A DNA stretch of 64,000 nucleotides from NCBI GenBank assembly GCA_903845055.1, contig CAIMWF010000134.1, forward strand, positions 19,127 to 83,126. Direction: 5' to 3'. A program made the position numbers and the translations under genes. The notes under the pieces are model-generated. The model was given only the letters and a program-made list of their open reading frames with translations. It did not search any database and had not been told where the DNA came from. Positions 1-44,701 of the stretch are shown one piece after another (position 1 is the first letter of the stretch; the number at the start of each line of letters is the position of its first letter). This DNA comes from an uncultured Bacteroidales bacterium. GTDB lineage: Bacteria; Bacteroidota; Bacteroidia; Bacteroidales; FEN-979.

Positions 1-3000
1 CGGCTGAATGAACAGGCGCTGTCGGTGAAAATCGGCGGGAATTCCATCGCCGATTTAGCCGCCATGGAACTGGAAGAGCTTGTAACCCTCCTCGCCGGGA
101 ACGGGTTAGCCGGCAACGCCGGGGCTGTTTCCGGTCCCATCGTTACACAGGTTGAGAAGCAAGTCACCCTGCTGAAACGCCTCGGCCTGGGCTACCTAAC
201 CTGCGACCGCGAATCGACCACCCTCTCGGGCGGCGAATCGCAGCGTTTACGGCTTGCCACGCAGGCCGGCATTGGGCTGAGCGGCATGATCTGCATATTC
301 GACGAACCCTCCATCGGGCTGCACCCTCATGACATATCAAACCTGATCGGTATCCTGAAAGAGATCCGCGACCGGGGCAATACCGTGATCGTTGTGGAAC
401 ACGAAGAGGAATTTCTCCGTCATGCCGACTGGCTGATCGATATCGGGCCTGGTCCCGGCGTTCACGGGGGCGAAGTGCTGTTCAACGGATCGATGATTAC
501 GGCGACGCATCTTTCAGAAGTGGAGACCAGGAAAAGCCGCACGCTCTCTTTTTTCAAAGGTTTCGAAAAGATTGCCGTTCCGGCGCAACGTCGGCCGGGG
601 CATGGTTTTCTTTCCGTTTCAGGGGCCGCCGCCAACAACCTCCGGAACATTGACGTCAGCTTCAGGTTGCAGGCGCTGAATGTGGTCACCGGTGTTTCGG
701 GTGCCGGGAAATCGACCCTTACCGAACAGGTGCTGGGGGCCTTTTTAAGGAACCGGCTGCACGGCACCAACGAGGCAGTGGGAACCTTTCGGGCAATCAC
801 TGGCTGGGAGGGGATCGGCAAACTGATCTCCATCGACCAGTCGCCCATCGGCCGCACCCCGCGCAGCAACCCGGCCACCTATACCGGTTTGTCCGATCCC
901 ATCCGCGACCTTTTTACCAGCCTGCCGGAATCGGCAAGGCTGGGATTTGATAAAAGCCGGTTCTCCTTCAATACTCCCGGGGGACGGTGCGAATCCTGCC
1001 AGGGCGCCGGTTACCAGCTGGCCGGGATGCACTTCATGGGTAATGCAGAGGTACTTTGCGAAGCCTGTGAGGGCCGCCGGTTCGATGAACCAACCCTGTC
1101 GGTCACCTTCCGCAGCAAAAATATTTCTGAGGTTTTCGGGATGACGGTTTCGGAAGCCCTCCTGTTTTTCGCGGGCGAACACAAGATCCAGCGTTACCTC
1201 GAAACCCTCGAAAACCTGGGACTTGGCTATATCACCCTCGGGCAGCGTTCATCAACCCTGAGCGGGGGAGAGGCACAGCGGATAAAACTGGCCACTGAAC
1301 TTGCCCGGCCGCAGTCGGCGCATACGCTGTACATCATGGATGAGCCGACCACCGGACTGCACCACGCCGATGTGGGGATCCTCCTAAACGCGCTGAACCG
1401 CCTGGTCGGCCAGGGACATACGGTAATCCTCATCGAACACCATGCCGCGATCATCATGGCGGCCGACCATGTCATTGACCTGGGTCCAGGAAGCGGGCGC
1501 GATGGAGGATCACTTCTTTTTTCAGGTACGCCGGAGGAACTTCTTGCGTGCGAAGGATCGCTCACGGCAAAGGCCCTCCTTGAATATCGAATATCGAATG
1601 TCGAATATCGAATGTCGAAGGAAGAAATACCGGACCAGGACGCTACAATAAATCGTAAATCGTATATCGTAAATCGTAAATTATCGCTGAAAGGCGTTTC
1701 CACCCATAACCTGAAACACATCGATGTTGATATCCCGCACAACAAAATAACGGTCATCACCGGCGTATCTGGCAGCGGCAAATCGTCGCTGGCTTTCGAC
1801 ACCATCTTTGCCGAGGGACAGAGCCGCTTCCTCGAAAGTTATTCCCCCTATGTCCGCAGCCGGATCGGGGTCAAAGAAAAGGCTGAATTCGAAGAAATTA
1901 CCGGCCTTACGCCCGCCTTTGCGGTAAACCAGGGAGGCCTCGGCCATAACCCGCGCTCCACCGTCGGGACGATGACAGGCATCTATGATCATTACAGGCT
2001 GCTGTATTCGAGGATCGGGAAGCGGGCCCTGGAAAATGAATATCGGATAACGAATAACGAATATCCGATATCGAGTCTTTTTTCCTTCAACCACCGGCAT
2101 GGCGCATGCAGCTTGTGCGACGGACTTGGTTTCCGGACTGTCTGCGATCCGGCGAAACTGGTGACCGATCCTTCGAAACCACTGACCAGTGGCGCGCTGG
2201 ACGGCACGAAAACCGGGAAATTCTATGGTGACCCGTTCGGGCAGTACATGGCCACGCTCAGGTCGGCTGGCCTGAAATACGGGTTTGATTTTACACAACC
2301 CTGGTCGGAACTTTCCGACCTGGCAAAAACAGTTGCGATGCATGGCACCGGCGAAGAGGTGTACGAGGTGAACTGGCAGTTCAAACGGAACAACCGCACC
2401 GGTGAGCACCATTTTACCGGGTCCTGGAAGGGGCTTGTCAGCCTGGTCAACGAAGAGTATGACCGCAAACATGCCGATCACCGGGGCGATAGCATGATGA
2501 ACCTCATGAAAACGGTCCCCTGTGCGGCATGCGGGGGGAAGCGACTGAGGCCTGAAGCACTCGGGTATCTTATCGCAGGGAAAAACATCGCGGAACTTTC
2601 GGCCCTGCCCGTTGACCGGTCCATCGGTTTTTTCGTTTCACTCATCTCCGCTCCCGGGCAATCCGGCGATCGTGAGGTGGCCTCCCCGCTCGTCGGGGAG
2701 ATCCTCCGTAAACTTGAATTCATGGCCGGACTGGGTCTCCCTTACCTCGCCCCCGACCGGCTTTCGTCGACCCTTTCGGGGGGTGAGGCGCAGCGGATCA
2801 GGCTGGCAGGTCAGCTGGGATCGGGACTAACGGGGATCACCTACGTGCTGGATGAACCTACCATCGGGCTGCACCCGCGCGACACGGGCAACCTGATGAA
2901 ACTGATCAGGTCGCTGCAACAGTCGGGGAATACGGTGGTGATCGTCGAACACGACCGCGACGTGATCATGGCGGCCGATTACCTGGTCGATATGGGGCCA

Positions 3001-4080
3001 GGCGCCGGTAAAGCAGGCGGGAGGATCCTTGCGACAGGCTCCCCGCAGGAGGTCGTCGGTTCACCAGCCTCGGTCACCGGGCCTTACCTGGCCGCGATTC
3101 CCCCTACCACCGGAGGGTTTGCATTAAACCGGGAGGGAATTCCTGACCGCGTACTCAATCCGGGCATCTTGATCCGGGATGCATTTGCCAACAACCTGAA
3201 GGGTTTTGACCTGGAGATACCATCGGGAGGGATCATTGCCATTACCGGCGTTTCGGGAAGCGGGAAATCGACCCTGGTGAATGAGGTGATTGGCCGTTCG
3301 TGGGGAAACGGCACTGCAGCCGGATGTTCCTCCATCAGCGGGTTTGAAAATTTTCAGCGGATGGTCAGCGTCCGCCGGCGAACCGGGTTTTCTTCGCCGC
3401 TGGCCACGCCCGCCACCTTTACCGGCATTTTTGACCGGATACGTGAAATTTTTGCCGGTACCGATGAAGCACGTCATTCGGGATTCACCAGGAACCATTT
3501 TTCATACCTGGACAAAAGCGGGCAGTGCCAGGCCTGCCAGGGAGCCGGGCAGATATCGGTTTCCATGGATTTCCTTTCGGATGTAACCATGATCTGTGAA
3601 CAGTGTCACGGCATGCGATATGGCGACGATATCCTGCGCTGCAGGCACCATGACCACCATATCGGGGAGGTGCTTGCGATGACCGTGACGGAGGCTGCCC
3701 GGTTTTTTGAAGATCAGCGGAACTTGTCCGAACAGTTGAACATGATCGGTCAAACAGGTCTTGGTTACCTGCAACTGGGCCAGCCGCTTGATACCCTTTC
3801 GGGGGGAGAGGCCCAGCGGCTGGTGCTGGCGGCCGAACTGGTGAAGCCGGGGAAGGGACGGGCTTTGTATCTTCTTGAGGAACCATCCGCAGGGCTCCAT
3901 TTCAGGGATACCGGGTACCTGGTTGCCCTTTTTCACCGCCTGGCCGCCCTGGGACACACCCTGCTGGTCATAGAACATGACCATGACATTATCGCCCAGG
4001 CTGATCACATCATCGAACTTGGCCCCGAAGGGGGCGAACGGGGCGGCTACCTCACCGGTTCTGTTTCAAGGCCGGCATAA
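1..4080 (+). CDS. Tandem (duplicated) UvrA-like ABC ATPase; the 5' end lies outside the window
   Basis: The frame is open from nt 1. There are four ABC signature motifs (LSGGESQRLRLA, LSGGEAQRIKLA, LSGGEAQRIRLA, LSGGEAQRLVLA) and three Walker A loops (GVSGAGKST, GVSGSGKSS, GVSGSGKST). There are two UvrA-type C-terminal zinc modules (CESCQGAG..CEACEG and CQACQGAG..CEQCHG). A second complete UvrA N-terminus (LKGVSTHNLKHIDVDIPHNKITVITGVSGSGKSSLAFDTIFAEGQ) starts near nt 1685 with no intervening stop codon. Confidence 0.85.
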   Translation, partial: RLNEQALSVKIGGNSIADLAAMELEELVTLLAGNGLAGNAGAVSGPIVTQVEKQVTLLKRLGLGYLTCDRESTTLSGGESQRLRLATQAGIGLSGMICIFDEPSIGLHPHDISNLIGILKEIRDRGNTVIVVEHEEEFLRHADWLIDIGPGPGVHGGEVLFNGSMITATHLSEVETRKSRTLSFFKGFEKIAVPAQRRPGHGFLSVSGAAANNLRNIDVSFRLQALNVVTGVSGAGKSTLTEQVLGAFLRNRLHGTNEAVGTFRAITGWEGIGKLISIDQSPIGRTPRSNPATYTGLSDPIRDLFTSLPESARLGFDKSRFSFNTPGGRCESCQGAGYQLAGMHFMGNAEVLCEACEGRRFDEPTLSVTFRSKNISEVFGMTVSEALLFFAGEHKIQRYLETLENLGLGYITLGQRSSTLSGGEAQRIKLATELARPQSAHTLYIMDEPTTGLHHADVGILLNALNRLVGQGHTVILIEHHAAIIMAADHVIDLGPGSGRDGGSLLFSGTPEELLACEGSLTAKALLEYRISNVEYRMSKEEIPDQDATINRKSYIVNRKLSLKGVSTHNLKHIDVDIPHNKITVITGVSGSGKSSLAFDTIFAEGQSRFLESYSPYVRSRIGVKEKAEFEEITGLTPAFAVNQGGLGHNPRSTVGTMTGIYDHYRLLYSRIGKRALENEYRITNNEYPISSLFSFNHRHGACSLCDGLGFRTVCDPAKLVTDPSKPLTSGALDGTKTGKFYGDPFGQYMATLRSAGLKYGFDFTQPWSELSDLAKTVAMHGTGEEVYEVNWQFKRNNRTGEHHFTGSWKGLVSLVNEEYDRKHADHRGDSMMNLMKTVPCAACGGKRLRPEALGYLIAGKNIAELSALPVDRSIGFFVSLISAPGQSGDREVASPLVGEILRKLEFMAGLGLPYLAPDRLSSTLSGGEAQRIRLAGQLGSGLTGITYVLDEPTIGLHPRDTGNLMKLIRSLQQSGNTVVIVEHDRDVIMAADYLVDMGPGAGKAGGRILATGSPQEVVGSPASVTGPYLAAIPPTTGGFALNREGIPDRVLNPGILIRDAFANNLKGFDLEIPSGGIIAITGVSGSGKSTLVNEVIGRSWGNGTAAGCSSISGFENFQRMVSVRRRTGFSSPLATPATFTGIFDRIREIFAGTDEARHSGFTRNHFSYLDKSGQCQACQGAGQISVSMDFLSDVTMICEQCHGMRYGDDILRCRHHDHHIGEVLAMTVTEAARFFEDQRNLSEQLNMIGQTGLGYLQLGQPLDTLSGGEAQRLVLAAELVKPGKGRALYLLEEPSAGLHFRDTGYLVALFHRLAALGHTLLVIEHDHDIIAQADHIIELGPEGGERGGYLTGSVSRPA
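1582..1620 (+). repeat. 7-nt tandem array GAATRTC x5.5, in frame inside the UvrA-like ORF
   Basis: Read directly as gaatatc gaatatc gaatgtc gaatatc gaatgtc gaag. It translates as EYRISNVEYRMSK. Confidence 0.95.
1650..1684 (+). repeat. 7-nt tandem array AAATCGT x5, in frame inside the UvrA-like ORF
   Basis: Read directly as aaatcgt aaatcgt atatcgt aaatcgt aaattat. It belongs to the same family as the intergenic arrays at 6270-6304, 31801-31837 and 36851-36878 (reverse). Confidence 0.95.
2038..2075 (+). repeat. 7-nt tandem array (GAATATC family) with internal 9-bp inverted repeat, in frame inside UvrA unit 2
   Basis: Read directly as gaatatc ggataac gaataac gaatatc cgatatc gag. ATATCGGAT (2040-2048) is the reverse complement of ATCCGATAT (2063-2071). 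It translates as ENEYRITNNEYPIS. Confidence 0.9.
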
Positions 4081-4085
4081 AAAAA

Positions 4086-4104
4086 CCGCCCCGTTCAGGG
4101 GCGG
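4086..4104 (-). terminator. GC-rich hairpin with a T-tract on the minus strand; possible bidirectional terminator between convergent genes
   Basis: CCGCCCC-gttca-GGGGCGG is a perfect 7-bp stem. It starts 6 nt after the UvrA-like stop codon. An A7 run at 4079-4085 gives a U-tract for minus-strand transcripts. There is no U-tract on the plus strand. Confidence 0.5.
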
Positions 4105-4315: not shown

Positions 4316-5398
4316 TTACCCCTCGTAAGCCGGGTAATCGGTATATCCCTGGGCTCCAGGGGTATAGAAAGTATTGTAATCCCAACCGGTGTTGATGGGT
4401 CTGTCATGCTGCATCCTTTCAACGAGGTCAGGGTTGCTGATGAAGGGGCGTCCGAAGGCGATCAGGTCTGCGAGGCCGCCCTGGAGGTCGCGTTCGGCGG
4501 TCTCCCTGGAATAGCCCCCGGCAAGGATCAGGGTTTTTACCAGTTTTTCACGGAAGTTCTGCTTGATGGCAAGCGGGACCTCCGGGGCGCCCATCCCGCT
4601 GTGATCCACCAGGTGGATGTAGAGGACGCCCAGTGCTTCCAGCCGTGTCGCAAGGTAATTGTACGTTGCATCGATTTCCGGGTAGGGAAGCATTCCTCCG
4701 TTTGTGCCGTAAGGCGACAAACGGATGGCCGTTTTATCCATCCCGATTGCCTTTCCTACCATCTCAACCACCTCCAGGACAAACCTGCATCGGTTTTCAA
4801 TGCTGCCACCATATTCATCGGTGCGCTGGTTGCTGTGGGGCGACAGAAATTGCTCGAGCAGGTACCCGTTGGCACCGTGCATCTCAACGCCGTCGAAACC
4901 CGCAGTAATCGCATTGATTGCCGATTTCATGAATTCTTTCTTTGTCTTGACGATATCTTCGCCGGTCATGGCCCGCGGAACGGGCATGTCTTGCATCCCG
5001 TTGCTGTCGGTGTACATCTGTCCGGGAGCGGCAAGGGCCGATGGTGCAATGATCTCGGCACCCGCGGGCAGGTTGTCAGGGTGTCCCATCCTCCCGGTAT
5101 GCATGAACTGGATAAAAATGCTGCCGCCCTTTTCATGAACGGCCCTGGTTGTTTTTAGCCAACCTGCAACCTGGGCATCGCTGAATATCCCCGGGATCCG
5201 CGAATATCCGAGCCCGTTTGGAGAGGGTGCGACGCCTTCGGTGATGATCAGGCCGGCACTGGCGCGCTGTTCATAATATGTTGCCATGAGATCGTTCGGG
5301 ATGTTGCCGATGGCGCGGCTGCGGGTCATCGGGGCCATGACGACCCTGTTTGGCAATACTTTTCCTGCAAGTGTGTAAGGACTGAATAGTTTTAACAT
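4316..5398 (-). CDS. Old Yellow Enzyme family NADH:flavin oxidoreductase / alkene reductase
   Basis: 360-aa ORF. The N-terminus is LFSPYTLAGKVLPNRVVMAPMTRSRA. It also has GFDGVEMHGANGYLLEQFL and DEYGGSIENRCRF, which are typical OYE/NemA family motifs. Confidence 0.85.
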   Translation of the reverse strand: MLKLFSPYTLAGKVLPNRVVMAPMTRSRAIGNIPNDLMATYYEQRASAGLIITEGVAPSPNGLGYSRIPGIFSDAQVAGWLKTTRAVHEKGGSIFIQFMHTGRMGHPDNLPAGAEIIAPSALAAPGQMYTDSNGMQDMPVPRAMTGEDIVKTKKEFMKSAINAITAGFDGVEMHGANGYLLEQFLSPHSNQRTDEYGGSIENRCRFVLEVVEMVGKAIGMDKTAIRLSPYGTNGGMLPYPEIDATYNYLATRLEALGVLYIHLVDHSGMGAPEVPLAIKQNFREKLVKTLILAGGYSRETAERDLQGGLADLIAFGRPFISNPDLVERMQHDRPINTGWDYNTFYTPGAQGYTDYPAYEG

Positions 5399-5532: not shown

Positions 5533-6222
5533 AAAAAAGTTGTTGCAAATGCCCTGGAGGCAATCAGGGGGATCGAAAGCAACATGACCCTCATGCTGGG
5601 GGGGTTCGGTTTGTGCGGGATTCCCGAAAATTGCATATCCGCCCTTGCCGCGGCTGATATCACGGGGCTTACCTGCATATCCAACAACGCCGGCATCGAT
5701 GGTTTCGGCCTTGGCATGCTGCTGCGCCGTCACCAGATCAGGAAGATGATTTCCTCCTATGTGGGTGAAAACAAAGAATTTGAACGCCAGTTGCTGAGCG
5801 GCGAACTCGAGGTGGAACTGATTCCGCAGGGAACGCTTGCAGAACGGATCCGTGCGGGCGGTGCGGGCATTCCGGCCTTTTATGTCCCGGCAGGTTACGG
5901 CACCGAGGTGGCCGAGGGCAAACCGGTGCGTGAATTTGATGGCAAGATGTATCTCGAGGAACGCTGGCTGAAGGCCGATTTTGCCATTGTCAAGGCCTGG
6001 AAAGGGGATACGAACGGCAACCTGGTATACAAATTCACAGCCAACAATTTCAACCAGTCCATGGCCACTGCTGGAAAGATTACCATCGCCGAGGTCGAAG
6101 AGCTCGTACCTGCAGGCGCACTTGATCCGAACCACATTCATACGCCGGGAGTTTTCGTGCAACGCATCTTTCAGGGAAGCAACTATGAGAAGCGGATTGA
6201 GTTTACCACCACGAGAGAGTGA
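5530..6222 (+). CDS. scoA: 3-oxoacid (acetoacetate) CoA-transferase subunit A
   Basis: The protein starts MKKVVANALEAIRGIESNMTLMLGGFGLCGIPE and contains ELIPQGTLAERIRAGGAGIPAF. These match family I CoA-transferase A subunits. Start chosen at the ATG at 5530, which is internal to the listed ORF. Confidence 0.85.
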   Translation: MKKVVANALEAIRGIESNMTLMLGGFGLCGIPENCISALAAADITGLTCISNNAGIDGFGLGMLLRRHQIRKMISSYVGENKEFERQLLSGELEVELIPQGTLAERIRAGGAGIPAFYVPAGYGTEVAEGKPVREFDGKMYLEERWLKADFAIVKAWKGDTNGNLVYKFTANNFNQSMATAGKITIAEVEELVPAGALDPNHIHTPGVFVQRIFQGSNYEKRIEFTTTRE

Positions 6223-6310
6223 CGAGTGACAAATGACGAGTGACGAATGACAAGTGACGTATGACGCAGAAATCGTAAATCCAAAATCGTAAATCGTAAA
6301 TTTTAAAATG
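6217..6310 (+). repeat. Compound tandem array: GAGTGAC-family x7 then AAATCGT-family x5, filling the whole scoA-scoB spacer
   Basis: Read as gagtgac gagtgac aaatgac gagtgac gaatgac aagtgac gtatgac gcag aaatcgt aaatcca aaatcgt aaatcgt aaatttt aaaATG. The scoA TGA stop (6220-6222) lies inside the first unit. The scoB ATG (6308) abuts the last unit. Confidence 0.95.
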
Positions 6311-6964
6311 GCTTTAGACAAGAACGGAATAGCGAAAAGGATCGCCAGGGAGCTGCAGGATGGATACTATGTCAACCTGGGCATCGGGATTCCTACCCTG
6401 GTGGCCAATTATATTCCCGCGGGGATGCAGATCGTCCTGCAATCCGAGAACGGGCTCCTGGGAATCGGCCCTTTTCCGGGAAAAGATGACGTGGATCCCG
6501 ATTTGATCAATGCCGGGAAACAGACCATAACAGCGCTTCCGGGCGCGGCGTTTTTCGACTCTTCCATGAGTTTTGCCATGATCCGCGGGGGCCATATCGA
6601 TCTGACCGTCCTGGGGGCTTTTGAAGTTTCCGAAGCGGGCGACATCTCCTCCTGGAAAATTCCCGGGAAACTTGTAAAAGGCATGGGAGGGGCGATGGAT
6701 CTCGTTGCATCGGCCAAAAACATCATCGTGGCCATGATGCATACCAACCCGCAGGGCGAATCGAAATTGCTGAAACGGTGCACCCTTCCCCTCACCGGCG
6801 TGGGTGTCGTAAAACGCATCGTTTCCGACCTCGCAGTCGTCGATGTCACGCCGCGGGGTTTCAAGCTGCTCGAACGGGCCCCGGGAGTTTCGGTACAGGA
6901 GATCATCAACGCCACCGAAGGAAAACTGATTGTTGAGGGGGAAATTCCTGAAATTGAAATCTAA
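6308..6964 (+). CDS. scoB: 3-oxoacid (acetoacetate) CoA-transferase subunit B
   Basis: 218 aa. Contains [24 protein letters not shown] and GMGGAMDLV, which are typical B-subunit motifs. It lies directly downstream of subunit A. Confidence 0.85.
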
Positions 6965-7009
6965 GATTGACTTTTTCTGAATTAATTAACTGTAAATTAA
7001 CCGGTAACA

Positions 7010-8167
7010 ATGTCCTTTTACACAACCCTGGGCCAGGTCCCCCGCAAACGGCATGTCGTATTCCGCAAGCCCGATGGCGGCCTCTATGCCGAGCAGCTGG
7101 TTTCGACCGAAGGGTTCTCAGATGCCTACAGTCTTGTTTACCATTGCCACCCGCCCACCCTTGTTACGGCCATCGATGCGGCGTACGACATAGCCCCTGC
7201 GATTGCCGTAGGCCGGAACATGCAACATCGTCTGCTCCAGGGGTTCAGTGTGATACCTGCCGACGATTACCTCGAAAGCAGGGTGCCTGTCCTTGTGAAC
7301 ACCGATTGCCATATCAGCCTGGCAGCTCCGCGGAAATCGATGACGGATTACTATTTCAGGAATGCGGGTGCCGACGAGATGATCTTCATTCACCAGGGCG
7401 AAGGGACCCTCCGGACCATGTACGGCAACATCCCGTTTGGCTATGGCGACCACCTGGTCATTCCCCGTGGGGTGACCTACCAGCTGGCGTTCACCACACC
7501 CGTTAACCGCCTTTTTATCGTCGAATCTTTTGCGCCCCTTCGCTTGCCAAAACGATACGTCAACAAATCGGGTCAGTTGCTTGAACATGCCCCGTTTTGC
7601 GAGCGCGATATCCGTGTGCCGTGCCAGCTTGAAACCCATGATGAAAAGGGAGACTTCCTGGTAAAGATCAAGCGGGATGATATGATCTGGCCCTACCATT
7701 TTGGCAGCCACCCGTTTGACCTGGTGGGCTGGGACGGATGCCACTACCCGTATGCTTTTTCCATCCACGATTTTGAGCCGATCACCGGCAGGCTGCACCA
7801 GCCGCCACCCGTGCACCAGACCTTTGAAACACCCGGCTTTGTGATCTGTGCTTTTGTTCCGCGGCTCTACGACTATCACCCGGGTTCCATCCCGGCCCCT
7901 TACAACCACAGCAATGTGGATTCGGATGAGGTGCTGTATTACGTTGACGGAGATTTCATGAGCAGGAACAACATCAAGCCGGGCAACATCACCCTGCACC
8001 CCACCGGTATTGTACACGGGCCCCACCCGGGAGCCGTTGAAAGGAGCATCGGGGCAAAGGAGACGAAGGAACTTGCCCTGATGGTCGATACCTTCAGGCC
8101 ACTGAAATTAACGATCCAGGCCCTCGCGATCGAGGACCCGGGTTACTTCAGGTCGTGGACTTTTTAG
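7010..8167 (+). CDS. hmgA: Homogentisate 1,2-dioxygenase (short Bacteroidota-type form)
   Basis: 385 aa. The N-terminus is MSFYTTLGQVPRKRHVVFRKPDGGLYAEQLVSTEGFS, and it contains HPTGIVHGPHPG. Neighbours are hppD and fahA. Confidence 0.8.
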   Translation: MSFYTTLGQVPRKRHVVFRKPDGGLYAEQLVSTEGFSDAYSLVYHCHPPTLVTAIDAAYDIAPAIAVGRNMQHRLLQGFSVIPADDYLESRVPVLVNTDCHISLAAPRKSMTDYYFRNAGADEMIFIHQGEGTLRTMYGNIPFGYGDHLVIPRGVTYQLAFTTPVNRLFIVESFAPLRLPKRYVNKSGQLLEHAPFCERDIRVPCQLETHDEKGDFLVKIKRDDMIWPYHFGSHPFDLVGWDGCHYPYAFSIHDFEPITGRLHQPPPVHQTFETPGFVICAFVPRLYDYHPGSIPAPYNHSNVDSDEVLYYVDGDFMSRNNIKPGNITLHPTGIVHGPHPGAVERSIGAKETKELALMVDTFRPLKLTIQALAIEDPGYFRSWTF

Positions 8168-8226
8168 GTGAATGCAGAATAAGTGAATGCAGGAATGCAG
8201 GTAATGCAAACAATGCAAATACTGCA
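8168..8226 (+). repeat. Tandem array of AATGCA(G)-family units directly after the hmgA stop
   Basis: Read as gtgaatgcag aataa gtgaatgcag gaatgcag gtaatgca aacaatgca aatactgca. It is related to the arrays at 44588-44697. Confidence 0.85.
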
Positions 8227-8264
8227 AAAAAATATCAGGAATTCTATTAACAGCGTTTAATTTT

Positions 8265-8288
8265 CAAATTCTCAAATTCTCAACTTAT
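8265..8288 (+). repeat. 8-nt tandem array CAAATTCT x3 just upstream of hppD
   Basis: Read as caaattct caaattct caacttat. It ends 5 nt before the hppD ATG at 8294. Confidence 0.8.
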
Positions 8289-8293
8289 TTCAT

Positions 8294-9394
8294 ATGCTTC
8301 CTCAGGATGATTTTTTACCAATCAACGGTACCGATTACGTTGAATTCTATGTGGGCAATGCCAAACAGGCGGCCCATTATTACCAGACCGCCTTCGGCTT
8401 CCAGCCGCTTGCTTATGCCGGGCTCGAAACTGGGCTGAAAGACCGAACCTCCTATGTGCTGAGGCAGGACAAGATCACCTTTGTCTTCACGACATCCCTC
8501 ATTCCCGATTCACCCGTTGCCGATCACTGCAGGCTTCACGGCGACGGGGTCAAAGTGGTGGCCCTGGGGGTTGACGATGCCCGCCGTTCCTTTGAAGAGA
8601 CGACAAAACGCGGTGCGCTTGCCTATATGCAGCCATCGGTTGTTGCTGATGAAGAGGGGCAGGTGGTGATGTCGGGGATCCACATTTATGGCGAAACAGT
8701 GCACGTTTTCATCGAACGCCGGAACTACCGTGGAATTTTCCTGCCCGGGTTTGTCAAATGGGAGCCGCACTATCGCCCCGCCCCGGTTGGCCTCAGGTAT
8801 GTCGATCACATCGTGGGTAATGTCGACTGGGGCCAGATGGATAAATGGGCCGGGTTTTACCATGACGTGATGGGCTTTAACCAGCTGATCTCGTTTGATG
8901 ACAACGATATCTCGACTGAATACACAGCCCTGATGAGCAAGGTGATGGCAAGCAGCAACCTGTACATCAAATACCCCCTGAATGAGCCGGCACATGGAAA
9001 GAAAAAGTCGCAGATCGAAGAGTACCTTGATTTTTATAAGGGCGCGGGGGTACAGCATGTGGCCATGGAAACCCGCGACATTCTTACCACGGTTGCCACG
9101 CTGAAGGACCGGGGTGTGGAATTCCTGCGCGTTCCCGACGCCTACTACGACACGCTGATCCAGCGTGTCGGCAGCATCGAGGAGACGATTGGTCCGCTTC
9201 GTGAACTCGGCATCCTGGTGGACCGCGATGAAGATGGCTACCTCTTGCAGATATTTACAAAACCCGTGGAGGACAGGCCGACCGTGTTTTACGAGATCAT
9301 CCAGCGCAAGGGGGCCCGTTCGTTCGGAAAGGGCAATTTCAGGGCACTCTTCGAATCAATCGAACTGGAACAGGGAAAGCGCGGAACTTTGTAA
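8294..9394 (+). CDS. hppD: 4-hydroxyphenylpyruvate dioxygenase
   Basis: 366 aa with two VOC/glyoxalase-like halves. Contains VDHIVGNV, GVQHVAM, YLLQIFTKP and FYEIIQRKGARSFGKGNFRALFESIE, the conserved HPPD C-terminal motif. Confidence 0.88.
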   Translation: MLPQDDFLPINGTDYVEFYVGNAKQAAHYYQTAFGFQPLAYAGLETGLKDRTSYVLRQDKITFVFTTSLIPDSPVADHCRLHGDGVKVVALGVDDARRSFEETTKRGALAYMQPSVVADEEGQVVMSGIHIYGETVHVFIERRNYRGIFLPGFVKWEPHYRPAPVGLRYVDHIVGNVDWGQMDKWAGFYHDVMGFNQLISFDDNDISTEYTALMSKVMASSNLYIKYPLNEPAHGKKKSQIEEYLDFYKGAGVQHVAMETRDILTTVATLKDRGVEFLRVPDAYYDTLIQRVGSIEETIGPLRELGILVDRDEDGYLLQIFTKPVEDRPTVFYEIIQRKGARSFGKGNFRALFESIELEQGKRGTL

Positions 9395-9433
9395 ATTATA
9401 AATGACAGAATAATAAGCAAGTTGGAGGTTGTA

Positions 9434-10711
9434 ATGGAGGTCGTCGAGCAATTGAAGTCATGGATTGAAGTAGGGAAGGAGAGCGATTTCCCCATTCAGA
9501 ATATCCCGTTTGGTATTTTTAAAACACCCGGGGGATCTGCAAGGGCCGCCACAAGGATCGGCGACACGGTGATCGATCTGAACGCCCTTGCACAGCAGGG
9601 GTTCCTGGATGGACTGGATATCGATCACGGGATTTTCAGGTATGAAACCCTGAATCCCTTCATGGCCCTGGGAAGACCGGTGTGCCGCAAGGTAAGACAA
9701 AGGATCGCTGAAATTTTCGAGGCGGGGAACCCCATCCTCCGGGATGATGCGGAGTGGCAGGCTGACATTCTTTACCCCCTCCATTCGGTGCAGATGCTGA
9801 TGCCTGTGCATGTAGGCGACTACACCGACTTTTATTCCAGCATCGAGCATGCAACCAATGTCGGGATCATGTTCCGCGATGCTGCCAATGCCCTCTTCCC
9901 GAACTGGAAACACCTCCCGGTCGGATACCATGGCAGGAGTTCTTCCATCGTTGTTTCGGGCACTGATATTTACCGGCCCAATGGTCAGACAAAGTCCGAC
10001 ACCTCCGAAACACCCGACTTCGGACCTTCGAAACAGGTTGACTTTGAACTGGAGATGGCCTTCATCACCTGTACAGCAACCGGGCTTGGGCAACCTGTTC
10101 CTGTTGAGACTGCCGAGGATCATATTTTCGGGATGGTGATCTTCAATGACCTCTCGGCCCGGGATATTCAAAAATGGGAATATGTTCCGCTGGGGCCGTT
10201 TCTCGCGAAAAATTTCGGCTCGGTCATCTCTCCCTGGGTGGTGACCCTCGATGCCATGGAGCCCTTCAGGATTGCCGGACCTCAGCAGGACCCTGTTGTG
10301 CTTCCCTACCTTCGCTCCGACAAACCGCACAATTTCGACGTTCAGCTGGAGGTCTTCATCAGGCCTGAAAACCAGCAGGAACAGCTCGTGTGCCGGTCAA
10401 ACTACCGTTATATGTACTGGAACCTCGCGCAGCAGCTGGCCCATCAAACCGTCAACGGCTGCAATATCAACGTAGGCGACATGTATGCCTCCGGAACCAT
10501 CAGTGGTCCAAACCCCGGTACCCAGGGTTCGATGCTCGAAATTGCCTGGAAAGGTACCCGTCCGGTAAGGATGGCCGACGGCAGTGAACGTAAGTTTATC
10601 AACGACCTCGACACGGTCATCATGCGTGGCTATTGTGTGAAGGAGAACCTGCGGATCGGGTTTGGGGAGGTCGTTACCAAAATCCTGCCCGCCATCCCTT
10701 ATCAATCTTAA
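9434..10711 (+). CDS. fahA: Fumarylacetoacetase
   Basis: Contains SWIEVGKESDFPIQNIPFGIF, HVGDYTDFYSS, GYHGRSSSIVVSG and FGMVIFNDLSARDIQ, which are FAH family motifs. First ATG taken at 9434; the listed ORF begins at a TTG at 9422. Confidence 0.85.
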   Translation: MEVVEQLKSWIEVGKESDFPIQNIPFGIFKTPGGSARAATRIGDTVIDLNALAQQGFLDGLDIDHGIFRYETLNPFMALGRPVCRKVRQRIAEIFEAGNPILRDDAEWQADILYPLHSVQMLMPVHVGDYTDFYSSIEHATNVGIMFRDAANALFPNWKHLPVGYHGRSSSIVVSGTDIYRPNGQTKSDTSETPDFGPSKQVDFELEMAFITCTATGLGQPVPVETAEDHIFGMVIFNDLSARDIQKWEYVPLGPFLAKNFGSVISPWVVTLDAMEPFRIAGPQQDPVVLPYLRSDKPHNFDVQLEVFIRPENQQEQLVCRSNYRYMYWNLAQQLAHQTVNGCNINVGDMYASGTISGPNPGTQGSMLEIAWKGTRPVRMADGSERKFINDLDTVIMRGYCVKENLRIGFGEVVTKILPAIPYQS

Positions 10712-10734
10712 TCTGAAATCTGAAATCTTAAATG
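10706..10734 (+). repeat. 7-nt tandem array TCTKAAA x4 spanning the fahA stop and the next start codon
   Basis: Read as tcttaa tctgaaa tctgaaa tcttaaa tg. The fahA TAA (10709-10711) and the ATG at 10732 are both formed by array units. Confidence 0.85.
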
Positions 10735-11361
10735 GATTCCTACCTGCACTTTGATCCCGGCACCACCTCCGTCCCAAAATTTCATCACCTGATGGTGGGT
10801 GCCATAGCCCCCCGGCCGATTGCCTTTGCCAGCACCATTGACCTGGAAGGGCGGCCCAATCTTTCGCCCTTCAGCTTTTTCAATGCGTTCGGGGCAAATC
10901 CTCCCATCCTTGTGTTCTCCCCTTCGCGGCGCGGCCGTGACAATACCACCAAGCACACCTATGAGAACGTAAAGGAGGTCCCCGAAGTGGTCATCAATGT
11001 GGTTAACTATGCCATGGTGCAGCAGGTAAGCGATTCCAGCGCTGATTTTCCGCGTGGTGTCAATGAATTTTCGATGGTCGGGTTTACCATGGAGCCATCG
11101 GAGCTGGTCAGACCCTTCAGGGTAAAGGAATCGCCGGTGCAGTTTGAGTGCAGGGTGCTCCAGGTGATCGAAATGGGGAACGGTGCCGCCGCCGGTAACC
11201 TTGTGGTCTGTGAAATCCTGCGGATACATATCAGCCAGGAGGTCATGGATGAAAAGGGGAGGATAGACCCGAACAGGCTCGACCTGGTCGGGAGGCTCGG
11301 CGGCGACTACTATGTGCGCGCCTCCGGCTCCGCCCTCTTCGAGATCCCGAAGCCCGACTAG
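10732..11361 (+). CDS. Flavin reductase-like (FMN-binding split-barrel) protein
   Basis: 209 aa. Contains KFHHLMVGAIAPRPIAFASTIDLEGRPNLSPFSFFN, typical of the flavin reductase domain family. Confidence 0.7.
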   Translation: MDSYLHFDPGTTSVPKFHHLMVGAIAPRPIAFASTIDLEGRPNLSPFSFFNAFGANPPILVFSPSRRGRDNTTKHTYENVKEVPEVVINVVNYAMVQQVSDSSADFPRGVNEFSMVGFTMEPSELVRPFRVKESPVQFECRVLQVIEMGNGAAAGNLVVCEILRIHISQEVMDEKGRIDPNRLDLVGRLGGDYYVRASGSALFEIPKPD

Positions 11362-11370
11362 CAAGAGTAG

Positions 11371-11455
11371 TAAAGCCGCACCGCAGTGCGGCTCCATCAG
11401 TAAAGCCGCACCGCAGTGCGGCTCCATCAGTAAAGCCGCACCGCAGTGCGGCTCA
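11371..11455 (+). repeat. Three directly abutting copies of a 30-bp unit, each containing a 7-bp GC-rich hairpin
   Basis: The unit taaaGCCGCACcgcaGTGCGGCtccatcag occupies 11371-11400 and 11401-11430, with a truncated third copy at 11431-11455. It lies between the flavin reductase stop and the phhA ATG. Confidence 0.95.
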
Positions 11456-30504: not shown

Positions 30505-31740
30505 ATGATGACACCCGGAAAAAAAATCTTCCATGCAATTCTGAGAACAACAGGTTTCATCCTGGCGGTTCTCCTGGTTTTGGAACTGGTCCTTTATTTC
30601 CTGGTACCCGTCTATGATTTTCCTGCCCCCCGGCCTTTTTCAGGTGAAAAACTCTACAATCCATACCAGGGGATGGACAGCACATGCTGGAGGAAAGCCA
30701 ATTTTCACTTTCACACCCGCGCCTGGGGCGGGCTGACGAGTGGCCGGCACAACTCCAACGAGGACTTTTACCGTACCTATAAAGCCATGGGCTATGACGC
30801 CCCCCAGATTTCAAACTATATGTCGATTGATGAATCGTTCAGGGATTCAGCATTTTACGTTCCCGGGTACGAGCATGGTTTTGGCATCAGGAAAAAGCAC
30901 CAGATACTGATCGGTTCGCACCGTGTGCTGTGGCTCGACTATTCCCTCGTCCAGAACCTGAACCACAAGCAGCATATGCTCAACCTGCTCAGACCCGATA
31001 ACGACGTGGTGGGGATCGCGCATCCCGACTGGGAAGGCGGGTACAGCCTGGCCGACATGCAAATGCTCTCGAATTACGACCTCGTGGAGGCGCTCGACCA
31101 TAACTGGCGGTCGCTCCCGCAGTGGGATGCCGCCCTGTCGGCCGGCCGGCCGGTCTATATCCTGGCCGACGACGACGCGCACAATATAAGCGACCCATAC
31201 GAGATTCAGCGGATGTGCACCTTCATCAACAGCCCGGGAGTTCATGGCGCAGACCTTGTCAAAGGGCTGAAATCGGGAATGGCCTACGGTGCCGACATTT
31301 ACATGGGAACCAATGAGACCTTCGCTGAAAAAGCAGTTCATGCAAAATCGATGCCTGTCGTCAACTCGGTGAGGGTCGCAGGGGATACCCTGTGGGTTGC
31401 CGTTAGCGGAAAGCCGCTGAAAATGACCTTTATCGGCCAGGACGGTGAACTGAAAAAGATTGTGAGGCTTTCAAATCGTGCATGGTACAAATTCAAGGCC
31501 GAAGATACCTATATTCGTACCGAGATCGTATTTTTAAAATACCATAAATTTCCGGCCGTAGGGCAGGGGACTGTTTTTTACCTGAACCCCGTATTCAGGT
31601 ACGACGGCCAGCCTCCTTCAAATCCTTTGCTTGCCGAGATCGACTGGCCAAGAACCTGGATTCAACGGGTCCTCGGACTCGGTTCGCTGGCGACATTGAT
31701 CCTGGCAGCAGGGTTTATCAGATGGAAGAAAAAATTATAA
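30505..31740 (+). CDS. Membrane-anchored hypothetical protein, possibly a PHP-type metal-dependent phosphoesterase
   Basis: 411 aa with TM helices at both termini. His/Asp-rich motifs NFHFHTRAW, GYEHGFG, GIAHPDW and ADDDAHN are spaced like PHP motifs. The function call is tentative. Confidence 0.4.
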   Translation: MMTPGKKIFHAILRTTGFILAVLLVLELVLYFLVPVYDFPAPRPFSGEKLYNPYQGMDSTCWRKANFHFHTRAWGGLTSGRHNSNEDFYRTYKAMGYDAPQISNYMSIDESFRDSAFYVPGYEHGFGIRKKHQILIGSHRVLWLDYSLVQNLNHKQHMLNLLRPDNDVVGIAHPDWEGGYSLADMQMLSNYDLVEALDHNWRSLPQWDAALSAGRPVYILADDDAHNISDPYEIQRMCTFINSPGVHGADLVKGLKSGMAYGADIYMGTNETFAEKAVHAKSMPVVNSVRVAGDTLWVAVSGKPLKMTFIGQDGELKKIVRLSNRAWYKFKAEDTYIRTEIVFLKYHKFPAVGQGTVFYLNPVFRYDGQPPSNPLLAEIDWPRTWIQRVLGLGSLATLILAAGFIRWKKKL

Positions 31741-31766
31741 ATTAAAAATTAAAAAATTACGCCATT

Positions 31767-31840
31767 CATTCGTCACTCGTCACTCGTCACTCGTCATTAT
31801 AAATCGTAAATCCAAAATCGTAAATCGTATATCCTAAATG
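31767..31840 (+). repeat. Compound tandem array: CACTCGT x4 (reverse complement of the GAGTGAC family) then AAATCGT family, ending in a start codon
   Basis: Read as cattcgt cactcgt cactcgt cactcgt cattata aatcgta aatccaa aatcgta aatcgta tatccta aATG. The stretch 31801-31829 is identical to 6270-6298. Confidence 0.95.
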
Positions 31841-36845: not shown

Positions 36846-36850
36846 ATCAG

Positions 36851-36917
36851 ATTTACAATTTACGATTTACGATTTCGCTACCTCGCTACCTCGCTACCTC
36901 GCTACCTCGCTATTTAT
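36851..36917 (+). repeat. Compound tandem array: ATTTACG x4 (reverse of AAATCGT) then TACCTCGC x4 (reverse of GAGGTAGC), filling the prfB-arsC spacer
   Basis: Read as atttaca atttacg atttacg atttcgc tacctcgc tacctcgc tacctcgc tacctcgc tatttat. On the coding (minus) strand the units read GAGGTAGC and AAATCGT. Confidence 0.95.
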
Positions 36918-44587: not shown

Positions 44588-44627
44588 CAATGCGTTAATG
44601 CAGGCAATGCAAGCAATGCAGGTAATG
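44588..44627 (+). repeat. 9-nt tandem array TAATGCAGR-family (left arm of an inverted pair)
   Basis: Read as caatgcg ttaatgcag gcaatgcaa gcaatgcag gtaatg. Confidence 0.85.
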
Positions 44628-44651
44628 TTTGTCCCACAAACTCCATCAGTG

Positions 44652-44697
44652 TCTGCATTATTTACATTATCTGCATTATCTGCATTACTTTCATTGT
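44652..44697 (+). repeat. 9-nt tandem array TCTGCATTA x4-5 (right arm, reverse complement of the left arm family)
   Basis: Read as tctgcatta tttacatta tctgcatta tctgcatta ctttcattg. It ends 4 nt before the ATG at 44702. Confidence 0.9.
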
Positions 44698-44701
44698 TTT
44701 T

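Follow-up and report, generated by a model that had tools for sequence, protein, structure and literature searches.

STRR heptamers of Cyanobacteria are families of tandem heptanucleotide repeats that are mostly intergenic, lineage-specific, and of unknown function, and we know of no report in which they occupy a protein linker in frame in a conserved manner. The arrays described below have other units and belong to another phylum. TAACTGA heptamer direct repeats, which belong to the "long simple sequence repeats" (LSSRs), have been described in Beggiatoaceae, Cyanobacteria, and some Bacteroidetes (MacGregor 2015, PMC4679880, also summarizing Mrazek et al. 2007); their function is unknown, and a translational role has been proposed (PMC4679880). 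In Beggiatoa, the forward stop-bearing repeats have been seen only at the ends of open reading frames (ORFs), whereas the intragenic ones were stop-free reverse repeats (PMC4679880). In addition, Rickettsia palindromic elements (RPEs) and other MITEs (miniature transposable elements with inverted repeats) inserted in frame into genes have been reviewed (PMC10969869), and class II UvrA proteins are present in Bacteroidetes and are UvrB-independent in drug resistance (PMC9328131). The present study concerns a stretch of 64,000 nt from an uncultured Bacteroidales bacterium (GenBank assembly GCA_903845055.1, contig CAIMWF010000134.1, positions 19,127 to 83,126; hereafter the window), which opens within a gene encoding two UvrA-like units joined by a linker built of heptamer arrays. 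A preliminary description, made from the letters of the window, had taken this gene for the product of a fusion, or of a very recent loss of a stop, that arose out of an earlier intergenic repeat cassette. The results presented here make a different history likely, namely an old, conserved double UvrA whose linker was later filled with arrays in a crown clade of Bacteroidales and whose in-frame stop was removed by selection.

Compared with these systems, the arrays resemble the TAACTGA repeats in being short 7-nt arrays, mostly intergenic and forward, that end a few nucleotides from a start codon, and in having forward units with stops in all frames as well as occasional copies in ORFs at peripheral or inter-module positions. 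In particular, the AAATCGT arrays of the window at 6270, 31800, and 36850 behave like TAACTGA leader repeats. They differ in their units (AAATCGT, GAATATC, and many others), which turn over between genomes, and in that an array is often paired with an inverted array as a covarying hairpin. Moreover, unlike in Beggiatoa, a forward stop-bearing array is situated here mid-ORF, where point changes falling exactly on the in-frame junctions defuse it. The likeness to RPEs lies in palindromic, repeat-derived inserts of about 100-150 nt that are translated in conserved proteins at fold-compatible positions; however, RPEs are full-length copy families with a conserved peptide, whereas in the present case recurrence is limited to the 7-nt arrays, the loop is unique to each locus, the left arm appears to have grown from host codons, and the copy in the window is non-palindromic. 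What is newly seen is that an old double UvrA has had its disordered linker and its loops colonized by heptamers that are normally intercistronic, their forward stop-bearing units being defused exactly at in-frame junctions.

Double-UvrA protein

The ORF at the start of the window (frame 1; positions 1, 4, 7, and so on) was stop-free until 4078-4080, confirming that one continuous ORF joins the two UvrA-like units (Table 1). The preliminary description had given this ORF as 1351+ aa; a long fusion ORF was indeed present, but the full gene encodes 1647 aa (P0001) and starts 864 nt 5' of the window, with the window opening at codon 289. On the L081 contig the gene occupies 6001-10944, and nt 1 of the window corresponds to nt 6865 of that contig. 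The protein scored 1454 bits against TIGR00630 (cut-off 729.8), which places it in the UvrA family, and 1445 bits against NF001503 (cut-off 1147), and the Pfam scan revealed two UvrA_DNA-bind domains plus ABC_tran.

Table 1. Features of the double-UvrA gene and comparator spacers in the window
Feature	Position (nt)	Strand	Description	Basis
UvrA-like unit 1, 3' part	1-1587	+	Residues 289-816 of the 1647-aa protein	ORF, translation
Left heptamer array	1582-1619	+	(GAATRTC)x5.4, encodes EYRISNVEYRMSK; no stop triplet in any frame	Tandem Repeats Finder
Spacer	1620-1648	+	29 nt, non-repetitive, encodes EEIPDQDAT; remnant of linker loop	Sequence
Right heptamer array	1649-1684	+	(AAATCGT)x4.7, encodes INRKSYIVNRK	Tandem Repeats Finder (TAAATCG x4.7 at 1649-1681)
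UvrA-like unit 2	1687-4080	+	About 798 aa; stop TAA at 4078-4080	Alignment to 2r6f; TIGR00630 score
Second in-frame heptamer array	2038-2072	+	GAATAWC-type, about 3.7-5 units (GAATATCGGATAACGAATAACGAATATCCGATATC), encodes ENEYRITNNEYPIS	Tandem Repeats Finder, repeat search
Comparator spacer, CoA-transferase subunit A to B	6217-6301	+	(GAGTGAC)x6 + (AAATCGT)x4.6, ends 6 nt before ATG 6308	
Comparator spacer	31766-31839	+	(TCACTCG)x4.4 + (AAATCGT)x5.7, ends at ATG 31838; ATATC variant unit at 31829-31835	
Comparator spacer	36850-36912	-	(GGTAGCGA)x4.8 + (AAATCGT)x3.7, ends 4 nt before ATG 36846	

Each unit aligned end to end with solved UvrA structures. Residues 2-114 and 131-791 of unit 2 corresponded to residues 26-138 and 283-932 of 2r6f (the class I UvrA of Geobacillus), and a 16-residue loop (residues 115-130) stood in place of residues 139-282 of that structure, the UvrB-binding domain. 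Unit 1 aligned with the class II structure 2vf7 in a single stretch (7-813 to 16-836) and was likewise collinear with 7sh1, whereas its alignment with class I UvrA fell into two stretches, skipping about 139-279. The UvrB-interaction family PF17760 was found neither in the precomputed Pfam list of P0001 nor among the 25/33 families listed. Each unit is a class II UvrA in that the UvrB-binding domain is absent and the remainder is collinear, as in UvrA2, DrrC, and Ecm16, and the protein as a whole is a head-to-tail tandem of two class-II-like UvrA units in one polypeptide. Because UvrA normally acts as a dimer, the double UvrA is probably a single-chain version of that dimer, that is, a pseudo-dimer. 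A tandem double UvrA is also represented by NF001885 (PRK00635; 1809-aa "excinuclease ABC subunit A"), but the present protein reached 945.9 bits against this family, below its equivalog cut-off of 3054, so it belongs to a separate double-UvrA lineage. A "class III" category of UvrA presumably covers duplicated class II proteins, for which the literature search gave no source. Internal initiation of unit 2 was also considered and ruled out, since unit 2 had no in-frame ATG, GTG, or TTG ahead of its Walker A motif; for the same reason, unit 2 is not translatable by itself.

Linker arrays and stop avoidance

Tandem Repeats Finder and the sequence agreed with the preliminary description in placing two heptamer arrays and a 29-nt spacer between the units, and frame-1 translation gave the linker peptide that it had reported, TAKALLEYRISNVEYRMSKEEIPDQDATINRKSYIVNRKLSLKGVSTHNLK. 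The left array was read as GAATATC x5.4 or, alternatively, as GAATGTCGAATATC x2.7; it opens with a unit that consists of the conserved E-Y codons closing UvrA unit 1, and orthologues carry the left array at an equal position. BLAST of the spacer against the window and 80 related loci detected no further copy. The linker arrays contain at least three tandem 7-nt copies, far above chance, as 21-mers of either unit with at most three mismatches numbered 6 and 12, against 0.00 expected in shuffles. The only in-frame ATG noted between the units (1612-1614) does lie inside the first array. In the right array, the TAA triplets at 1656, 1670, and 1677 are out of frame, and the sole in-frame one is turned into TAT at 1663-1665 by the third unit (1664-1670), which reads ATATCGT; a single variant unit thus holds the frame open, as had been stated.

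The linker arrays had further been assigned to the family that fills the intergenic spacers of the window. This was borne out for AAATCGT, which recurs at 6270-6301, 31800-31839, and 36850-36875 (minus strand), but not for the GAATATC-type, whose occurrences, those of the linker and of 2038-2072, all fall within this gene. The linker array itself does not qualify as an intergenic leader, being situated inside an ORF with no ATG, GTG, or TTG next in frame. The array at 2038-2072 occupies the 16-residue loop that substitutes for the class I UvrB-binding domain in unit 2, and this loop is array-filled in many orthologues, with differing units.

Because a sense AAATCGT array creates TAA at every unit junction, it can persist in an ORF only with its in-frame junctions mutated. 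Junctions were counted in sense AAATCGT-type arrays with at most one mismatch to the unit. Within this gene, the in-frame junctions were non-stop in all eight cases (seven different triplets: AAA twice, GAA, ACA, CAA, TCA, TAC, and TAT), whereas 14 of the 19 out-of-frame junctions of the in-gene arrays were TAA and 106 of the 148 junctions outside the gene were stops, both shares being about 72-74%; at the background rate, eight non-stops would be expected with a probability of about 0.28^8, roughly 4e-5. The TAT at 1663-1665 is likely the footprint of purifying selection for read-through and not the event by which two genes were joined. The locus can be seen as a clean natural experiment in the coexistence of selfish or slippage-born repeats with coding sequence, in which a stop-bearing array survives only with substitutions at its in-frame junctions.

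Arrays of the orthologues clustered at five sites, namely the linker, the scar of the UvrB-binding domain in both units, and, again in both units, the loop that follows the second signature motif. AlphaFold2 modeling of window positions 1-3600 gave a mean predicted local distance difference test score (pLDDT) of 80.5, with values below 50 at fragment residues 538-557 (the middle of the linker) and 678-686 (EYRITNNEY) and above 80 in the flanks. The arrays map to disordered linkers and lost-domain scars, and such low-complexity inserts should not be taken in annotation for frameshifts, pseudogenes, or gene boundaries.

Conservation of the fused gene

A genome scan matched 231 loci, of which 80 were kept and examined for the junction, and a protein search returned more than 120 homologues. 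The homologues measured 1476-1824 aa, with 98-100% query coverage and 51-73% identity, apart from two contig-end fragments with 91-92% coverage. Units 1 and 2 shared one frame without a stop in the linker in 80/80 loci, and no split two-gene form was found among these loci or the homologues. In metagenome-assembled genomes (MAGs) of Aminicenantes, Acidobacteriota, and Chlorobiota, the gene was likewise fused, with non-repetitive linkers of 16-30 aa. The gene is therefore a member of a conserved group of fused double-UvrA orthologues of about 1650 aa in Bacteroidota and other lineages. In a neighbor-joining tree of the flanking domains, array linkers marked a derived crown clade of Bacteroidales, and the window nested inside this clade beside L002, L001, and L050. 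Since repeat-filled linkers are limited to this crown clade, the arrays appear to postdate the fusion, and the tree points to an old and widely conserved fusion with a pre-existing linker into which the arrays came later.

The left arrays begin exactly at GAA TAT C codons, which encode a conserved E-Y-L/R at the C-terminus of unit 1 and are also present in the array-free relatives L024 and L062. Because the array starts at codons shared with array-free relatives, it would have grown in place and not by capture of a cassette, which speaks against the intergenic-cassette origin proposed in the preliminary description. A linker with the look of a defused spacer gives no evidence for a recent fusion of genes, and it is the orthologue survey that decides.

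Linkers of related genomes

Most linkers of the crown clade consisted of a heptamer array, a loop, and an inverted array. Their lengths ranged from 90 to 321 nt, with a mode of exactly 141 nt (47 codons) in 10 loci. The linkers of the relatives folded as long hairpins (-32 to -59 kcal/mol; z -5.5 to -8.0). For the ten 141-nt linkers, RNAalifold predicted 33 pairs, with 86% of cells paired compared with 76 +/- 1.3% in shuffles and 19-49% in slid controls, and compensatory changes in 16/33 pairs compared with 8.4 +/- 1.9 in shuffles; none of 500 shuffles reached either value. The arm units varied by lineage (GAATATY/RATATTC, ACGATTT/AAATCGT, GAATGAC/GTCATTC, and others), the ACGATTT/AAATCGT type having arisen at least two times, and the arrays held one 7-nt register relative to unit 2 across all arm types. 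Arrays and hairpins thus stay for long at one site, be it a spacer or a protein linker, while their units turn over in concert, which bears on the function of heptanucleotide repeats.

In the window linker, the ancestral left arm is kept, but the right arm is the non-complementary AAATCGT, and the fold was no better than that of shuffles (z = +0.98). GAATATC and AAATCGT can be paired by hand at about 4/7 positions, and folding gave no long stem. Moreover, when the whole window was scanned for inverted repeats (16 nt or longer, within 250 nt), no array hairpin came to light, so the hairpin model is limited to the relatives, and an Rfam 15 scan found no match anywhere in the window. In L001 (2862-3182), the left array had grown to about 260 nt, with EYRISNN repeated about 12 times, resulting in a linker of 107 aa with the frame kept; large changes in copy number are therefore tolerated. 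In P0024 (1824 aa), comparison at the protein level showed a loop peptide, ESRISNIEYRMSKSDPDQQNGKIVNRKSYIVN, that nearly duplicates the peptide encoded by the window linker and shares its stop-replacing Tyr.

Explanations for the linker

The history considered likely here, that of an old double UvrA whose linker was filled later, would have proceeded in several steps. In the uncultured Bacteroidales of the crown clade, heptamer arrays are abundant, filling spacers directly upstream of start codons, and would have spread to the stretches least constrained at the protein level, namely the inter-unit linker and the loops of lost domains. The left (GAATATC)n array most likely arose by slipped-strand duplication of the GAA TAT C codons that end unit 1. 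In most relatives the right arm is the inverted array, so that the linker forms a long DNA or RNA hairpin; in the window lineage AAATCGT would have taken the place of this arm, through replacement or conversion that kept the 7-nt register, with loss of the hairpin. The array peptides would serve only as a disordered tether. Several points weigh against this history. The layout of array, spacer, and AAATCGT ending at the start of unit 2 matches that of intercistronic spacers, and a transient split followed by re-fusion could conceivably have occurred in the ancestor of the clade. The gene contained 68/189 period-7 arrays in 27% of the sampled sequence, compared with 19 in all other long ORFs, and such enrichment is not obviously predicted by a purely neutral "filler" model. 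The 141-nt mode of the relatives' linkers could mean selection on structure, and their covarying hairpin could likewise reflect selection on a nucleic-acid structure and not neutral drift. Lastly, the mechanism of the right-arm swap (gene conversion, template switching, or inter-allele recombination) is presumed.

A recent fusion of adjacent UvrA genes, by a single A-to-T change removing the only in-frame stop of a cassette, would account for a linker built like the intercistronic spacers of the same genome, for the match of the right array to 31815-31839 (96% over 25 nt) and 6270-6302 (91% over 33 nt), and for the fact that exactly one substitution maintains the open frame. Yet the gene was already fused in every locus and homologue surveyed, distant phyla have non-repeat linkers, orthologues at 67-76% identity share the left array at an equal in-frame position, no relative has a stop in unit 1, unit 2 is startless, and the ATATC variant unit also occurs in an intergenic array. 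Accordingly, a recent fusion or stop-loss is unsupported and very improbable, and the comparison of orthologous loci, which had been suggested as the way to tell two genes with TAA from one, gave a single fused frame throughout. That nt 1665 or the lengths of the arrays reflect an error of sequencing or assembly is hardly credible. Short tandem repeats are generally prone to assembly errors; however, 14 contigs that derive from several independent samples and assemblers carried an identical 1647-aa protein, which indicates that nt 1665 is real. In addition, three fetched contigs and the window differed by 5 single-nucleotide polymorphisms (SNPs) and 0 indels over about 17 kb, none of them in the linker and without polymorphism of array length, and P0121, a variant with two residues changed, had a linker identical to that of the window.

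Two other readings give the linker a nature of its own. It could be a discrete mobile palindromic element of the MITE or RPE type, about 130-140 nt long and bearing terminal inverted repeats, which would have entered the gene in frame and have partly decayed in the window lineage. The 141-nt mode in 10 orthologues, the inverted arms, and the strong hairpins are consistent with such an element, as are insertions at surface loops, as reported for RPEs (PMC10969869), and, in P0024, the very similar cassette peptide located elsewhere, in the unit-2 loop. By contrast, when 16 linkers were compared by BLAST with 1.49 Mb of loci from own and related genomes, only array segments were recovered and never the loop or spacer, let alone a full-length copy, which leaves a discrete mobile cassette without evidence; the palindromic fold, present in orthologues, was not found in the window linker, whose arms are non-complementary. 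The left array also opens with an ancestral coding heptamer, turnover of the arm units takes place on the spot and leaves the register fixed, and a target-site duplication is not evident, all of which makes the mobile element a decidedly doubtful candidate. Alternatively, the linker could be a selected cis-acting nucleic-acid element within the ORF, present as a hairpin in relatives (e.g., for translation pacing or as an RNase or attenuation site) and as a leader-type AAATCGT array in the window. This possibility, which we regard as doubtful, draws on the covariation and pairing of the ten linkers, their constant length, the joint switch of both arms at least two times (L003; L004 together with L005), the conserved position of AAATCGT arrays by start codons and a tRNA promoter, and the enrichment of arrays in the gene. 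On the other hand, the window linker is structureless even though its gene remains intact and varies little from sample to sample, being nearly clonal, clade lengths vary, the compensatory changes trace to few independent events, and internal initiation lacks a start codon. Furthermore, quasi-palindrome template switching and array homogenization are established mutational mechanisms that can mimic covariation and would offer a sufficient non-adaptive explanation of it. In a broader form, heptamer arrays of this Bacteroidales clade would make up a position-stable, sequence-fluid cis-acting system, acting as leaders by starts and promoters and as hairpins of an array with its inverted array, with the uvrA-linker hairpin a selected mRNA or DNA structure. 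This form is unlikely; if true, the linker hairpin might pace translation or folding between the two halves or be a site of mRNA processing or attenuation, and the window would have swapped to a leader-type array.

Heptamer arrays in spacers and other ORFs

Among tandem repeats in the 1.49 Mb of related loci, a period of 7 accounted for 255 rows, compared with 46 for a period of 6 and 119 for a period of 8, and AAATCGT was the most frequent heptamer unit. Forward AAATCGT arrays ended between -2 and +10 nt from the ATG of the downstream cistron (-2 to +6 in the window), and the AAATCGT spacers of the window separate co-directional genes. In 11 genomes, arrays filled the orthologous counterpart of the spacer between CoA-transferase subunits A and B, their units changing from genome to genome; in the window, the stop codon of the upstream gene falls within this array. 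The ORF that begins at ATG 36846 is small and, judged by eye from its translation, ArsC/Spx-like. More generally, the spacers at 6217-6301, 8185-8283, 10710-10733, 31730-31839, 36850-36912, and 44597-44699 consisted nearly entirely of short arrays with units of 7-9 nt, and array spacers between co-directional genes stopped 0-10 nt short of the next start codon. The spacer at 44597-44699, upstream of ATG 44702, contains 9-nt units, (AATGCAGGC)x3.4 and a roughly inverted (TGCATTATY)x5, around a short spacer, and is a possible array hairpin resembling the linkers of the relatives.

Arrays were also associated with the upstream region of the gene. In L081, which is of the window's genome, and in L050, the double-uvrA has a tRNA-Ala(CGC) gene as its immediate upstream neighbor in divergent orientation, and tRNA-Ala was also found upstream on the same contig in three further relatives (L004, L006, and L007), at a distance of several kb in L004. 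The tRNA-Ala gene has a TAnnTTTG promoter box to which an (AAATCGT)n array is directly adjacent, an arrangement conserved in 5 genomes. In L081, upstream of the window, the tRNA-Ala and array region extends over 5729-5872 and 5950-5990, with a (TAATTTK)-type array shortly ahead of the ATG of uvrA.

An internal pattern of variants (AAATCGT AAATCYA AAATCGT AAATCGT...) was common to AAATCGT arrays from unrelated sites and different genomes; it was seen at 6270-6301 and 31800-31839 of the window, in L003 (4251-4283), in L050 (20910-20949), and in L044 (21666-21689). In addition, the linker arm of L003 matched an intergenic array of L050 at 100% identity across 34 nt. The shared variant pattern hints at the copying of a specific sequence of about 35 nt and not at independent slippage.

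Two further features of the window are of another kind. Right after the uvrA stop, a GC-rich hairpin (CCGCCCC-GTTCA-GGGGCGG, 4086-4104) is preceded by an A-run, and, read on the minus strand, it forms a classic intrinsic terminator with a T-run that possibly serves the convergent gene at 4316-5398. Between the stop at 11359-11361 and ATG 11469, a perfect 30-nt unit (AGTAAAGCCGCACCGCAGTGCGGCTCCATC) is repeated 2.9 times (11369-11454), each copy holding the GC-rich hairpin GCCGCAC-CGCA-GTGCGGC.

Other long ORFs of related genomes carried in-frame heptamer arrays as well (e.g., KEDEYRISNNEFRMLNEG), at orthologous or paralogous positions, including L028 24515-24546 and L032 15457-15488, L038 21078 and 22275, and L032 7889 and L035 19564, so in-frame arrays are not confined to uvrA.

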